NCBI GenBank assembly: GCA_964016885.1
Contig: OZ024764.1
Span: forward strand, 26,102,001 to 26,166,000
Direction: 5' to 3'
DNA: 64,000 nucleotides
Source of the DNA: Eledone cirrhosa
Taxonomy: Eukaryota
Part shown: positions 6,628-63,782 of the stretch, one piece after another
Numbering within the stretch: the first letter of the stretch is position 1
Layout: each line of letters begins with the position of its first letter
Notes under the pieces: generated by a model
The model's input: the letters and a program-made list of their open reading frames with translations, nothing else
Told to the model about the DNA's origin: nothing
Databases searched by the model: none
Translations under genes and position numbers: made by a program

Positions 6628-6965
6628 AAGAGGTGAGTTTTATTGTAGCACAATAAAGCAATGCAAATATCGGATAAGTAGCACTCTACAGTTTGTAGGA
6701 CTGGAGTATAAATAATATAAGATCAAAAGATGGTTAAAAGAGTTCCAAGTATTTTATTATGCGCATTTCAAAAACAAATATCATCATGGATGATATCTGT
6801 TGATTTCAAACTTCACTGCTCACAAGTGTTTTTTAAGCTTCATATCATGTCTCCCTATTTTATCTGATGAGAACGCAGATATCATCCCATGATGATATTT
6901 GTTTTTGAAATGCGCATAATAAAATACTTGGAACTCTTTTAACTATCTTTTGATCTTATATTATA
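6628..6965. mobile_element. Hammerhead-bearing short element, family A (Penelope-like pLTR remnant or retrozyme-like), with ~88-bp inverted arms
   Basis: Homologous to 20534-20742 and 52377-52746; flanked by (TA)n; arms 6713-6800 and 6876-6963. Confidence 0.7.
6856..6926 (+). ncRNA. Type I hammerhead ribozyme, family A
   Basis: UAUUUUAU-CUGAUGA-[16-bp stem II]-GAAA-UGCGCA-UA^AUAAAAUA; 8-bp stem I; palindromic stem III; predicted cut after 6918. Confidence 0.85.
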
Positions 6966-7217
6966 TATCGGTGGATGGGCAGTATTGGTAGAGGGTCGGA
7001 CGCCATGCATAGTTACGTCCCTTTACGGTTTGAGTTCAAATCCCGCCGAGGTTAACTTTGCCTTTCATCCTTACGGGGTCGATAAAATAAAGTACCAGTA
7101 ATGTACTGGGTAATTGCTGGCCTTGTGCCAAAAGTAGAAACAATTATATATATATATATATATATATATATAGTGACGAAACATAAGTCAATTGCATGAA
7201 CTCATAACCCTTTATTT

Positions 7218-7273
7218 ACTGCTATATATATTTCGATGATAGCCATTGAATGGCTATGACCTCATCAGGCAGT
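7218..7273 (-). ncRNA. Type I hammerhead ribozyme, family C (sense to NF1)
   Basis: ACUGC-CUGAUGA-GGUCAUAGCCAU-UCA-AUGGCUAUCAUC-GAAA-UAUAUA-UA^GCAGU. Confidence 0.85.
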
Positions 7274-7479
7274 TAGTCAGTTCTTAGATATGCCAGCTCT
7301 GTGTTTATGGTGTTGATGGTATCAGAGCCTTGGGACAGATATATATATAGGTATATATTTGGCCATTTTCGATAACGAGGGGACAGCCATCATATATAGA
7401 TATAAATATATATATATTTCGTTTCTGAATTTTTTTAGCAAGATTCTTTATCTGAAAACGTGTGTTGAAACCGATATTG

Positions 7480-7665
7480 TTATACTTTGGAAGGGTCATG
7501 TTGTATACTTTGGGAGGGTCATGTTGTATACTTTGGGAGGGTCATGTTGTATACTTTGGGAGGGTCATGTTGTATACTTTGGGAGGGTCATGTTGTTATA
7601 CTTTGGGAGGGTCATGTTGTATACTTTGGGAGGGTCATATTGTATACTTTGGGAGGGTCATGTTG
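7480..7665. repeat. 23-bp minisatellite
   Basis: tgttgtatactttgggagggtca about 8 times. Confidence 0.9.
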
Positions 7666-7741
7666 CCAATAAGAAACACATGTAACAATTGCTTTCACTC
7701 CAATTTATTATAAATTAAATTTATAAATTTCCGGTTGGTTT

Positions 7742-10700
7742 AGTGGTAGCTACAGTAGATGTAGTAGTGATGGTGGTAGTGGTAGCTACAGTAGATGTAG
7801 TAGTAGTGGTAGTGGTAGCTACAGTAGATGTAGTAGTAGTGGTGGTAGTGGTAGCTACAGTAGATGTAGTAGTAGTGGTAGTGGTAGCTACAGTAGATGT
7901 AGTAGTGGTGGTAGTGGTAGCTACAGTAGATGTAGTGGTGGTAGTGGTAGCTACAGTAGATGTAGTAGTGATGGTGGTAGTGGTAGCTACAGTAGATGTA
8001 GTAGTAGTGGTAGTGGTAGCTACAGTAGATGTAGTAGTAGTGGTGGTAGTGGTAGCTACAGTAGATGTAGTAGTAGTGGTAGTGGTAGCTACAGTAGATG
8101 TAGTAGTGGTAGTAGTGGTAGCTACAGTAGATGTAGTAGTGATGGTGGTAGTGGTAGCTACAGTAGATGTAGTAGTAGTGGTAGTGGTAGCTACAGTAGA
8201 TGTAGTAGTAGTGGTAGTGGTAGCTACAGTAGATGTAGTAGTAGTGGTGGTAGTGGTAGCTACAGTAGATGTAGTAGTAGTGGTAGTGGTAGCTACAGTA
8301 GATGTAGTAGTGGTGGTAGTGGTAGCTACAGTAGATGTAGTGGTGGTAGTGGTAGCTACAGTAGATGTAGTAGTGGTGGTGGTAGTGGTAGCTACAGTAG
8401 ATGTAATAGTGGTAGTGGTAGCTACAGTAGATGTAGTAGTGGTGGTAGCTACAGTAGATGTAGTAGTGGTAGCTACAGTAGATGTAGTAGTAGTGGTGGT
8501 GGTGGTAGCTACAGTAGATGTAGTAGTAGTGGTGGTAGTGGTAGCTACAGTAGATGTAGTAGTAGTGGTAGCTACAGTAGATGTAGTAGTAGTGGTAGCT
8601 ACAGTAGATGTAGTAGTAGTAGTGGAAGTGGTAGCTACAGTAGATGTAGTAGTAGTGGTAGTGGTAGCTACAGTAGATGTAGTAGTAGTGGTGGTAGCTA
8701 CAGTAGATGTAGTAGTAGTGGTGGGAGTGGTAGCTACAGTAGATGTAGTAGTGGTGGTGGTAGTGGTAGCTACAGTAGATGTAGTAGTGGTGGTGGTAGT
8801 GGTAGCTACAGTAGATGTAGTAGTGGTGGTAGTGGTAGCTAGAGTAGATGTAGTAGTAGTGGTAGCTACAGTAGATGTAGTAGTATAGGTGGTAGTGGTA
8901 GCTACAGTAGATGTAGTAGTAGTGGTAGTGGTAGCTACAGTAGATGTAGTAGTAGTGGTGGTAGTGGTAGCTACAGTAGATGTAGTAGTAGTGGTAGTGG
9001 TAGCTACAGTAGATGTAGTAGTGGTAGTAGTGGTAGCTACAGTAGATGTAGTAGTGATGGTGGTAGTGGTAGCTACAGTAGATGTAGTAGTAGTGGTAGT
9101 GGTAGCTACAGTAGATGTAGTAGTAGTGGTAGTGGTAGCTACAGTAGATGTAGTAGTAGTGGTGGTAGTGGTAGCTACAGTAGATGTAGTAGTAGTGGTA
9201 GTGGTAGCTACAGTAGATGTAGTAGTGGTGGTAGTGGTAGCTACAGTAGATGTAGTGGTGGTAGTGGTAGCTACAGTAGATGTAGTAGTGGTGGTGGTAG
9301 TGGTAGCTACAGTAGATGTAATAGTGGTAGTGGTAGCTACAGTAGATGTAGTAGTGGTGGTAGCTACAGTAGATGTAGTAGTGGTGGTAGTGGTAGCTAC
9401 AGTAGATGTAGTAGTAGTGGTGGTGGTGGTAGCTACAGTAGATGTAGTAGTAGTGGTGGTAGTGGTAGCTACAGTAGATGTAGTAGTAGTGGTAGCTACA
9501 GTAGATGTAGTAGTAGTGGTAGCTACAGTAGATGTAGTAGTAGTGGTAGCTACAGTAGATGTAGTAGTAGTAGTGGAAGTGGTAGCTACAGTAGATGTAG
9601 TAGTAGTGGTAGTGGTAGCTACAGTAGATGTAGTAGTAGTGGTGGTAGCTACAGTAGATGTAGTAGTAGTGGTGGGAGTGGTAGCTACAGTAGATGTAGT
9701 AGTGGTGGTGGTAGTGGTAGCTACAGTAGATGTAGTAGTGGTGGTGGTAGTGGTAGCTACAGTAGATGTAGTAGTGGTGGTAGTGGTAGCTAGAGTAGAT
9801 GTAGTAGTAGTGGTAGCTACAGTAGATGTAGTAGTATAGGTGGTAGTGGTAGCTACAGTAGATGTAGTAGTAGTAGTAGTGGTAGCTACAGTAGATGTAG
9901 TAGTAGTGGTGGAAGTAGTAGCTACAGTAGATGTAGTAGTGGTGGTGGTAGTGGTAGCTGCAGTAGATGTAGTAGTAGTGGTGGGAGTGGTAGCTACAGT
10001 AGATGTAGTAGTGGTGGTGGGAGTGGTAGCTACAGTAGATGTAGTAGTGGTGGTGGTAGTGGTAGCTACAGTAGATGTAGTAGTGGTGGTAGTGGTAGCT
10101 AGAGTAGATGTAGTAGTATAGGTGGTAGTGGTAGCTACAGTAGATGTAGTAGTAGTAGTAGTGGTAGCTACAGTAGATGTAGTAGTAGTAGTGGAAGTAG
10201 TAGCTACAGTAGATGTAGTAGTGGTGGTGGTAGTGGTAGCTACAGTAGATGTAGTAGTGGTGGTAGTGGTAGCTACAGTAGATGTAGTAGTAGTGGTGGT
10301 AGTAGTAGTGGTGGTGGTGGTGGTAGCTACAGTAGATGTAGTAGTAGTGGTGGAAGTAGTAGCTACAGTAGATGTAGTAGTAGTGGTGGCAGTGGTAGCT
10401 ACAGTAGATGTAGTAGTAGTGGTGGCAGTGGTAGCTACAGTAGATGTAGTAGTGGTGGTGGTAGTGGTAGCTACAGTAGATGTAATAGTGGTAGTGGTAG
10501 CTACAGTAGATGTAGTAGTGGTGGTGGTAGTGGTAGCTACAGTAGATGTAGTAGTGGTGGTAGCTACAGTAGATGTAGTAGTGGTGGTAGTGGTAGCTAC
10601 AGTAGATGTAGTAGTAGTGGTGGTAGTAGTAGTGGTGGTGGTGGTAGCTACAGTAGATGTAGTAGTAGTGGTGGTAGTGGTAGCTACAGTAGATGTAGTA

Positions 10701-62825: not shown

Positions 62826-62951
62826 AATTAATAATCAAAACGACCCCCCAATATTTCAACATCACCCCACTCTGCTATCCCTTCCCTCCATCTCTGAACT
62901 AACATATTAGCTGAGGTGAGAAAGAGTTAAGTTGCAGTGGGTTGACCTTAC

Positions 62952-63161
62952 CTGTGTGATGATCTTGTATAAAGCGCTGACTAAGACCAGGTGGTAGATG
63001 AGAGGAGACTGTGGGTTGAGACAGACCTTGGGAAGATCTCCGATGTATGGGTTGATGCGAAAGAACGACACAAAACAATCAATGTACAGGTCAATGTCTT
63101 GACCAATTGTACCCTGGCTACGACTAAACTTCGTACTGGAAGGTGGGCTGAATAGTAGGGT
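62952..63161 (-). CDS. NF1: NF1 exon A (TLLFSPPS...[11 protein letters not shown]...LYKIITQ), 210 nt, phase 0/0
   Basis: ctacag| acceptor, |gtaag donor; resembles human NLLFNPSKPFSR...LHRIITN. Confidence 0.95.
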
Positions 63162-63519
63162 CTGTAGAGAAGACAACAACATAATATATATATGTATGTA
63201 TATACATATATATATATATATATATATATATATATATATATATATATATATATATGTATATATATATATATATATATACATATATATATATATATATATA
63301 TATATATATATATATATATATATATATATATACATGCATATATATATATACATACATACATATATATATATATATATAAACATACATATATATATATATA
63401 TATAAACATACATATAAATATATATACATACATTTAAATATACATATATACATATAAATATATATACATATATATATACGATATTAAACCAATGGAAACT
63501 ACATTTATAAAACCATATT

Positions 63520-63585
63520 TATTTCATTATATATATTTCAGGGATATCATATTAAAAATATGGTATGCCTTCTTCAGACAAAATA
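63520..63585 (-). ncRNA. Type I hammerhead ribozyme, family B (left arm of palindrome, sense to NF1)
   Basis: Reverse complement of 63717-63782. Confidence 0.8.
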
Positions 63586-63716
63586 CAATATATAAACAGT
63601 TTTATAAATAAATTTGACATACCTTAAAATTTTACAACTTCCATTTAAAAAGTTGTTATGGAAGTTGTAAAATTTTAAGGTATGTCAAATTTATTTATAA
63701 AACTGTTTATATATTG

Positions 63717-63782
63717 TATTTTGTCTGAAGAAGGCATACCATATTTTTAATATGATATCCCTGAAATATATATAATGAAATA
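63717..63782 (+). ncRNA. Type I hammerhead ribozyme, family B (right arm of palindrome)
   Basis: UAUUUUGU-CUGAAGA-AGGCAUACCAUAUU-UUU-AAUAUGAUAUCCCU-GAAA-UAUAUA-UA^AUGAAAUA. Confidence 0.8.

Follow-up and report, generated by a model that had tools for sequence, protein, structure and literature searches.

The 64,000-nt stretch analysed here (the window; contig OZ024764.1 of Eledone cirrhosa) covers part of the NF1 gene, as a previous reading of the sequence alone had supposed. The gene lies on the minus strand, and its exons match neurofibromin residues 365-420, 1164-1236 and 1356-1397. Besides an exon in open frame, further NF1 exons lie on the minus strand between 13.0 and 63.1 kb of the window, and since one exon lies to the left of the window, the left-hand motifs described below are also intronic. 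The right-hand motif pair at 63.5 kb is about 400 nt upstream of the exon for residues 365-420, the furthest-5' exon located. The sequence-only reading had reported eight hammerhead ribozyme motifs in these introns, and all of its coordinates and strands were correct. The features are given below, with core positions referring to C3 of the ribozyme and with families (A to D) assigned to Penelope-like elements (PLEs) as argued in the following paragraphs.

6629..6968, mixed strands: family A insertion 1, 95-97% identical to the longer A copies L125 and L004; its minus part (about 6629-6799) is an inverted tail plus an inverted partial 3' end without CUGANGA, joined to a plus part (6795-6968) that is a direct 5'-truncated 3' end
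6856..6926, plus strand: hammerhead A, stem I 8 bp, core 6864, stem II 15 bp, 8-nt palindrome, predicted cut after 6918; antisense to NF1
7173..7340, minus strand: family B insertion, a Hydra PLE 3' end of about 165 nt flanked by (TA)n, truncated at an ATAT microhomology hotspot
7218..7273, minus strand: hammerhead B, stem I 5 bp, core 7268, stem II 11 bp, predicted cut after 7223; NF1-sense, single copy
15636..15874, mixed strands: family D insertion, 100% identical to L268 over 135 nt; inverted tail piece at 15636-15740 (minus), direct 3' end at 15740-15874 (plus)
15779..15838, plus strand: hammerhead D, stem I 7 bp, core 15786, 9-nt near-palindrome, GUA triplet, predicted cut after 15831; antisense to NF1
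16309..16549, plus strand: family C insertion 1, a 5'-truncated 3' end flanked by (TA)n, of a very young subfamily, 99.6% identical to L091
16441..16506, plus strand: hammerhead C, core 16449, predicted cut after 16498; antisense to NF1
20529..20742, mixed strands: family A insertion 2, a direct 3' end on the minus strand (20702 to 20529) plus an inverted tail piece (20711-20742)
20571..20641, minus strand: hammerhead A, core 20633, predicted cut after 20579; NF1-sense, single copy
34057..34317, minus strand: NF1 exon in open frame, human residues 1164-1236
52377..52748, mixed strands: family A insertion 3, a fold-back pair (hairpin -185 kcal/mol), minus arm with tail, plus arm ending in (TA)n
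52501..52571, minus strand: hammerhead A, core 52563, predicted cut after 52509; NF1-sense, within the fold-back
52638..52708, plus strand: hammerhead A, core 52646, predicted cut after 52700; antisense to NF1
63477..63912, mixed strands: family C insertion 2, a fold-back pair (hairpin -251 kcal/mol) with arms 98% identical, plus arm with tail
63520..63585, minus strand: hammerhead C, core 63577, predicted cut after 63528; NF1-sense, within the fold-back
63717..63782, plus strand: hammerhead C, core 63725, predicted cut after 63774; antisense to NF1

Each of the eight reported motifs contains CUGANGA, GAAA, a stem I and an AUA triplet, together with a stem III that is an 8-nt palindrome or near-palindrome, as had been claimed, and is suited to dimers; the cut after 6918 predicted for the first of them is also right. 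The total, however, was one short, because a ninth motif (core 15786, plus strand) had gone unnoticed; it represents a fourth family, D, where three had been counted. The type I core, with CUGANGA, GAAA and an NUH triplet round a three-way junction and an open stem I, is present in 9 of 9 motifs. A descriptor that checks the stems detected nine motifs in the window; 100 block-wise dinucleotide shuffles averaged 0.04, with a maximum of 1, and a chance origin was rejected. The reported density of about one per 8 kb holds within the window but not genome-wide, where it is about one per 24 kb. Targeting of (TA)n was likewise borne out, but the motifs are not separate elements: the nine belong to seven insertions into (TA)n, two of which are fold-back pairs. 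No tandem array containing the motifs was observed in the window. Three contig sets of unspecified kind, aligned to 15640-17060, showed only very high repeat depth.

The sequence-only reading had proposed a check against Rfam hammerhead models, and this found no hammerhead family among the 150 listed of 154 matches (E<=1). It is likely that the long stem II defeats these models. The matches listed were microRNA models lying on (TA)n.

The motifs had been taken for non-coding mobile RNAs with no reverse transcriptase (RT) or endonuclease ORF nearby. The second part of this claim is right, as the window contains no match to a Hydra RT or endonuclease. The first part is not, because longer copies of every family elsewhere in the genome run upstream into their own Hydra-type RT-endonuclease ORF, and the ragged 5' ends fit truncation. 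The reading of the motifs as type I hammerheads of the PLE kind was right. The suggested search for autonomous PLEs with these termini was successful for families C and D, in which intact ORFs lie between two intact hammerheads. At one family C locus (L091), a hammerhead is followed by a frame of 664 codons, in which RT and GIY-YIG motifs occur, and, 4 kb on, by a hammerhead again; at another (L169), an intact 741-aa ORF is flanked by two intact hammerheads; and the family D locus L268 has an intact 714-aa ORF in the same arrangement. The hammerhead of the 5' repeat lies 190-230 nt upstream of the ATG. For family A, remnants of a Hydra ORF were found upstream and in the same orientation in 6 of 6 extended long copies, and for family B the motif was found downstream in 16 of 20 loci located by the 3' end of the ORF. 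The ORFs of A and B are broken but show collinear RT and C-terminal GIY-YIG domains, and no intact one was seen in the loci examined. The RT core of family C gave 41,955 candidates, and all 150 of the 150 scored were at least 95% identical. When homologues of the family D protein were sought, 8,000 candidates were scored and 1,248 of them had E<=1e-30; the best was 58% identical and the others 41-46%, and since nearly all lack a name they gave no pointer to clade or taxon. Protein identity between families is only 35-55%.

[quoted passage not shown] All of these motifs were found in the C and D proteins: C has RWR/DKT and D has RWK/DKT. B has RWR/DKT. The CxCX5C linker, CxxC and CxH are present and, as judged by eye, CCHH is absent from the endonuclease domain. 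The pLTR, the tandem or inverted structure and the optional tail were seen in L091, L169 and L268; for family B neither a tail nor a 5' repeat was established. A Pfam scan of the family C protein gave nothing significant. Insertion into (TA)n, a canonical type I hammerhead near the 3' end and inverted 5'-truncated pieces are also features given for the Hydra clade (PMC8557442), to which we assign the four families provisionally, from motifs and comparison by eye. We concluded, with a probability of roughly 0.9, that all nine hammerheads come from the 3' termini of Hydra-clade PLEs of four families, left as short 5'-truncated copies in (TA)n tracts of NF1 introns and likely dead on arrival. The ribozyme is predicted not to cut unless the palindromes of two copies in a tandem precursor pair with each other.

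Hammerhead-bearing Hydra PLEs that target (TA)n are already published, and one of them is an Octopus family (Craig et al. 2021, PMC8557442). Family D comes closest to Hydra-1_Obim of Octopus bimaculoides, its protein being alike by eye and an ACCA-N-UGGU stem III being shared, although the hammerheads of all four families differ in sequence from the Hydra-1_Obim motif given in that paper. The Hydra motifs given there mostly have stems II of 3-7 bp and stems III starting with AC, whereas those of A to C have stems II of 11-15 bp with a mismatch at pair 4 and 8-nt palindromes starting with AU. The elements described here are about 4-4.6 kb long with long 3' UTRs, their tails are 85-90 nt and their copy number is very high; in the account of PMC8557442, Hydra elements are mostly below 3 kb, PLE tails are 30-40 nt and few families are given. 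Another published hammerhead set, with 2,000-9,000 motifs per genome, is similar in its type I fold, long stem II, dimer-suited palindromic stem III, mostly solo truncated copies and opposite-strand pairs 100-700 bp apart, but the stem III found here is not minimal, being a complete palindrome of 8-9 nt. The Poseidon PLE of Anolis, which belongs to another clade, also starts RT at two sites, which yield tailed and tailless ends, and has AT-rich targets and a protein-assisted hammerhead; its hammerhead, unlike the one here, overlaps the ORF start (PMC11167929).

The copy ends suggest how the insertions arise. In family C the 3' end is fixed at either of two points, about 55 and 145 nt beyond the cut site, and with overlapping loci possibly counted twice, its 61 scored 3' ends comprised 27 in the tail, 33 in (TA)n and 1 other, the 42 of family A being divided into 13, 28 and 1. 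Inverted 5' pieces and (TA)n flanks were seen in the copies. None of 33 distinct family C loci has its 5' end within 50 nt of the cut site, and 6 extend back across it. A linear cleaved RNA serving as the direct template and setting full-length 5' ends was rejected on this ground.

To what extent the ribozyme fold is constrained was assessed on 22 distinct motifs. After exclusion of L139, whose stem II is much longer, both sides change in 14 of 20 stem pairs among the remaining 21, which are related sequences chosen by a stem-demanding descriptor; this was obtained in 0 of 500 shuffles, and slid controls gave 4-9 pairs. Covariation of stems I and II is seen between families and subfamilies. 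Differences among copies of one family, which the previous reading had said to preserve pairing in family A, are mostly neutral decay. The 11 core columns hold no shared variant in family A, B or C, as against 6/93, 2/105 and 20/104 flank columns, respectively. The AUA triplet and the palindrome are each kept in 22 of 22 motifs, a pyrimidine mismatch occurs at pair 4 of stem II in 21 of 22, and N7 varies freely. In family A, stem II is closed by G-U or A-U instead of the usual G-C. In the folding model, stem III of a monomer costs 2.0-2.9 kcal/mol in eight of the nine window motifs and 0.1 in D, whereas pairing of two palindromes would gain 2.2-10.5 kcal/mol, the AU-only palindromes of B and C forming weak predicted duplexes (-2.2 to -3.2 kcal/mol). 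Stem I does not dominate the predicted ensembles when the flanks are 45 nt long (probability 0.00-0.45); in the 63.5-kb pair its predicted probability is 0.04 even with 10-nt flanks. Poor in vitro cleavage has been reported for metazoan PLE hammerheads (PMC4209133).

The short copies might instead be separate non-autonomous, non-coding ribozyme RNAs, retrozyme- or SINE-like, with masters of their own and mobilised in trans by Hydra PLE proteins. The recurrent 165-nt form of B speaks for this, its start lying within a few bases of one position in 24 of the 29 best matches to the window copy and in 9 of 30 unselected copies, and a 2026 preprint traces animal retrozymes back to the pLTRs of PLEs (bioRxiv 10.64898/2026.07.22.740005). 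But the recurrent start falls at an ATAT microhomology to the (TA)n target; the 5' ends of the 30 unselected B copies are spread from -14 to +1467, 18 copies being longer than the 165-nt form (up to 1467 nt) and 3 shorter; and two common B variants are found in short and long copies alike, at different frequency. A separate 165-nt B subfamily was rejected for these reasons. Non-LTR retrozymes share type I hammerheads that work best as dimers (PMC7229834; bioRxiv 10.64898/2026.07.22.740005), but they are described as circRNA-producing tandem repeats, non-coding and about 300 nt in length, whereas here the ends of coding elements are dispersed and truncated. The hammerhead-bearing, non-coding units of 150-1000 nt in tandem that mark a retrozyme were not found, no arrays of short units were present in the loci examined, and long copies enter ORFs. 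We consider this origin improbable. Slightly less probable still is that the hammerheads are active as monomers within the pre-mRNA of the host, where they would affect transcripts of NF1 or other genes by intron cutting or 3'-end formation, as domesticated or tolerated regulation. The intact motifs at 7268 and 20633 are sense in NF1 introns, one of them between two alternative exons, and the approximately 124,000 motifs genome-wide make many sense-intronic cases likely. On the other hand, single copies decay neutrally (private changes of 2.07% in the core and 2.04% in the flanks of 44 B copies located without using the core), the monomer stem III is predicted to be unfavourable, and in the window 4 motifs are sense and 5 antisense. 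Since five motifs are antisense, two of the sense motifs should, by prediction, be sequestered in long hairpins and the two lone copies would have an unfavourable monomer stem III, little cleavage of the NF1 transcript is expected, and lone intronic copies are likely to be mostly inert.

A further alternative concerns mechanism only and is compatible with PLE identity: the fold may be kept for binding of the PLE protein or for positioning of the RT start, with catalysis marginal or irrelevant. Every intact genomic copy spans the cut site and 5' ends map elsewhere; the mismatch at pair 4 of stem II could make contact with a protein or within the tertiary structure; and for the anole PLE, insertion in vitro was reported to be unaffected by catalytic mutants, with no RNA reads ending at the cut site (PMC11167929). 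Nevertheless, the catalytic positions, the NUH triplet and the palindrome are kept across families as divergent as these while N7 is free, which is the signature of selection on the chemistry, and we regard a purely structural role as doubtful, though clearly less so than the two preceding proposals.

For the Hydra PLE reading, the following course of events is suggested. The element endonuclease would nick (TA)n, and RT would initiate at one of two sites downstream of the ribozyme and copy through it, so that the template must be uncut or re-ligated there. Early RT stops and template fold-back would give the short and inverted copies. Less firmly, with the balance tipping only slightly in its favour, the two palindromes of an HHR-ORF-HHR precursor would pair as an 8-bp stem III, likely with the help of the element protein, and release a unit-length RNA that may circularise.

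The element kind is already known, and the window itself is ordinary transposon debris. What we did not find in print is the load, together with the shared architecture (a long stem II with the pair-4 pyrimidine mismatch and an 8-nt palindrome) that is missed by Rfam. Exact-core matches numbered 123,726 genome-wide, or one per 24 kb, against 213 in controls; the total given for axolotl, 126,247, is comparable (PMC7229834; bioRxiv 10.64898/2026.07.22.740005). In the literature, no earlier account of this load was found; only Craig et al. 2021 and a squid genome paper, with 235 Rfam hammerheads, touch the subject, and the main text of a 2026 curated Octopus vulgaris repeat annotation makes no mention of Hydra elements or ribozymes. 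As no genome-wide hammerhead count for Schistosoma was found in the literature, we do not claim the densest known load.

It is an even chance, in our estimate, that this hammerhead load ranks among the heaviest known, with about 124,000 intact cores as a minimum and thus as many as in axolotl, whose genome is some ten times larger, that it stems from a recent and probably still continuing burst in which many uncatalogued Hydra PLE families of distinct, Rfam-invisible architecture took part, and that the fold-backs are then a large source of long intronic dsRNA for octopus A-to-I editing. The role of the PLE hammerhead becomes testable, as young families with an intact ORF between two intact ribozymes are available with tens of thousands of natural variants and covarying stems. 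If the reading is true, intact (TA)n-specific elements would offer a natural system for studying dimer cleavage and circularisation as a driver of PLE transposition, and the near-perfect intronic fold-backs may feed the hyper-editing published for octopus (PMC5625713).

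A descriptor search that demanded the core, NUH and minimum lengths of 5 bp for stem I and 4 bp for stem II detected nine hammerhead motifs in the window; shuffled sequences (n = 100, dinucleotides preserved within 1-kb blocks) averaged 0.04 motifs and had at most 1. The eight motifs located by the sequence-only reading are all present at the positions it gives; the ninth (C3, the core position naming each motif, at 15786, plus strand) belongs to a fourth family, D. An Rfam scan of the window yielded no hammerhead family among the 150 matches listed of 154. The cut sites are predicted as follows.

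Window, after 6918, 7223, 15831, 16498, 20579, 52509, 52700, 63528, 63774: predicted cut sites

The nine motifs correspond to seven insertions, every one adjoining (TA)n. Motifs 52563/52646 are the two oppositely oriented arms of one fold-back insertion, as are 63577/63725, and the copies at 6864, 15786 and 20633 also contain inverted pieces. Copies outside the window have two fixed 3' ends, one passing directly into (TA)n and the other carrying an added tail: 28 and 13, respectively, in family A (n = 42) and 33 and 27 in family C (n = 61); overlapping loci may count twice. Of 29 ends in family B, 28 pass into (TA)n. The two family C ends sit about 55 and 145 nt beyond the cut site. These 3' ends and inverted pieces correspond to the tail and inverted-pLTR (terminal repeat) pattern of Penelope-like elements (PLEs) in the available text of PMC8557442 and PMC11167929. 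At L066, a locus elsewhere in the genome, a different PLE endonuclease fragment with a CCHH-like motif (1635-2100), judged by eye to be of Neptune or Naiad type, is inserted into (TA)n beside a copy of family B; nested PLE ends accumulate in (TA)n tracts. A near-perfect 77-nt palindrome of high repeat depth in the genome, lying between (TA)n tracts at window 16099-16175, is possibly the end of another fold-back element.

The motifs had been regarded as parts of non-coding mobile RNAs. This is not supported, since the parents carry RT/GIY-YIG ORFs, into which the long copies of all four families lead; the advice to look for autonomous PLEs sharing the window termini was sound. In family C, L091 begins with an inverted truncated copy; after it come a first hammerhead and the tail, then a long frame containing RT and GIY-YIG motifs, and finally a 3' UTR of 1.7 kb leading to another hammerhead. 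L169 has an intact 741-aa ORF flanked by two intact hammerheads. A 227-aa family C RT piece retrieved 41,955 candidates spanning all related families; the 150 that were scored were all at least 95% identical, several lying within frames of 730-780 codons. The family D locus L268 has a 714-aa ORF between hammerheads 4.6 kb apart. More than 1.4 kb of upstream sequence is common to 6 of 29 other family A loci, and after extension all six showed ORF remnants in the same orientation. For family B, the upstream walk arrives at an ORF (L164), whose 3' end retrieved 20 loci, 16 with the B motif downstream. The proteins share 35-55% identity and the Hydra signatures RWK/RWR, DKT, CxCX5C, CxxC and CxH. 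Placed by these signature motifs, the parents are Hydra-type PLEs.

Among the 29 best matches of family B, 24 share a start point, and a separate master for the short copies was considered. In an unselected sample (30 of the 2,079 copies with an exact 38-mer match, taken in order along the chromosomes), 9 start at that point, 3 are shorter and 18 are longer (up to 1467 nt). At the common start point, ATAT provides microhomology to the target, and the common variants are present in both short and long copies at differing frequencies. The ragged lengths, the ATAT hotspot and the variants common to both speak against a separate master; short B copies are truncations with a hotspot.

In the likely cycle, the element's endonuclease nicks (TA)n, and RT, which has two possible start sites downstream of the ribozyme, copies through the latter. 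The cut site is contained in every intact copy. Among 33 distinct C loci, 5' ends are absent from the 50 nt around it, and six loci extend back across it; therefore the RT template was uncut or re-ligated there. In a two-hammerhead precursor, stem III would form from the two palindromes, and cleavage would then give a unit-length RNA, which may circularise. We lean slightly towards such release by dimer cleavage, which was proposed with possible circularisation in PMC4209133. According to the available text of PMC11167929, the ribozyme of an anole PLE depended on the protein, and insertion in vitro did not require this ribozyme. Pairing of palindromes between molecules is predicted at -2.2 to -10.5 kcal/mol, and stem III in the monomer is predicted to be unfavourable, by 0.1 kcal/mol in D and by 2.0-2.9 kcal/mol in the other eight motifs. 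The predicted stem I probability of 0.00-0.45 with 45-nt flanks counts against a ready fold, as do the hairpins predicted for the fold-back pairs (-185 and -251 kcal/mol), inside which the sense motif is buried.

Clustering of 226 motifs at 92% gave 22 distinct ones whose stem III region is 8 nt long. All 22 have a self-complementary palindrome, AUA and an unpaired stem II pair 4 (pyrimidine-pyrimidine in 21), none of which is demanded by the descriptor. Pairing is preserved between distinct motifs: 92.9% of cells pair in an alignment of 21 motifs, and 14 of 20 pairs vary on both sides, exceeding all 500 shuffles and slid controls, in a set that was pre-chosen for stems and consists of related sequences. 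Among copies retrieved independently of the core, the core columns of A, B and C contain no shared variants, and flank columns have 6/93, 2/105 and 20/104, respectively; private changes in family B are 2.07% in the core and 2.04% in the flank. As core columns hold no shared variants and B private changes are equal in core and flank, we concluded that selection acts on master elements and individual copies decay.

The assignment of the host gene to NF1, on the minus strand, was confirmed: about 16 exon-like frames were picked out by eye, and matches to solved neurofibromin confirmed four. Relative to NF1, four motifs have the sense and five the antisense orientation. The GAP-domain exon is present twice, about 13.7 kb apart. 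A 72-bp satellite forms five separate arrays in NF1 introns (matches 91-97%), and a 108-bp satellite is present twice.

Window 13017-13141, minus: GAP-domain exon copy, 125 nt, AG/GT-flanked, human residues 1356-1397
L201 1503-1639 (G000:C25:26101155-26101291, on the contig holding the window), minus: GAP-domain exon copy, 137 nt, AG/GT-flanked, human residues 1356-1397
Window 4421-5988, 17068-17679, 47030-48446, 54105-55650, 59056-59401, both orientations: 72-bp satellite arrays
Window 24445-24874, 61698-62824: two 108-bp satellite arrays

The two exons have identical phases, and their joint inclusion would shift the frame; they are likely mutually exclusive, in the region of human alternative exon 23a. 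The only PH-domain matches (G000:C25:28453263-28456141; L195, L196) are 2.3 Mb away on the window's upstream side, which is anomalous because this domain is expected after the GAP domain; they reflect misassembly, rearrangement or a second copy.

The elements resemble an Octopus family; this likeness, together with a SINE, suggests that the genome is that of an octopus. Genome-wide (3.0 Gb), exact patterns matched 108,300 times (control 201) for the type with an 8-nt palindrome and AUA, and 15,426 times (control 12) for the D type. The total of 123,726, one per 24 kb, with stems unchecked and a few matches overlapping, is a lower bound, because hammerhead types exist beyond these two patterns; the loci read contain others, e.g. 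with short stem II and 5-7 nt stem III regions. Sampling of forty evenly spaced 10-kb stretches agrees, with 21 stem-checked motifs in 400 kb (0-1 in five shuffles). The window has about 3.4 times the genome mean density, 2.6 motifs being expected. The axolotl genome is about 32 Gb. Published hammerhead numbers are 126,247 for axolotl, in the available text of that report, about 5,000 for mussel, 235 by Rfam for giant squid and, for minimal motifs, about 9,000 in Xenopus and about 4,000 in coelacanth (PMC4209133). Density in Schistosoma may be comparable; no genome-wide figure for it was found in the literature. Hydra PLEs, their hammerheads and the (TA)n preference are already described in the available text of PMC8557442, and Hydra-1_Obim, in the available part of its supplement, has a hammerhead different from those of A-D. 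No earlier report of families A-D or of such a load was found in the literature. A repeat annotation of O. vulgaris from 2026 mentions neither Hydra, hammerhead nor ribozyme in its main text. We concluded that the hammerhead motifs of the window are real and belong to a known element type, the families being new and their abundance unusual.
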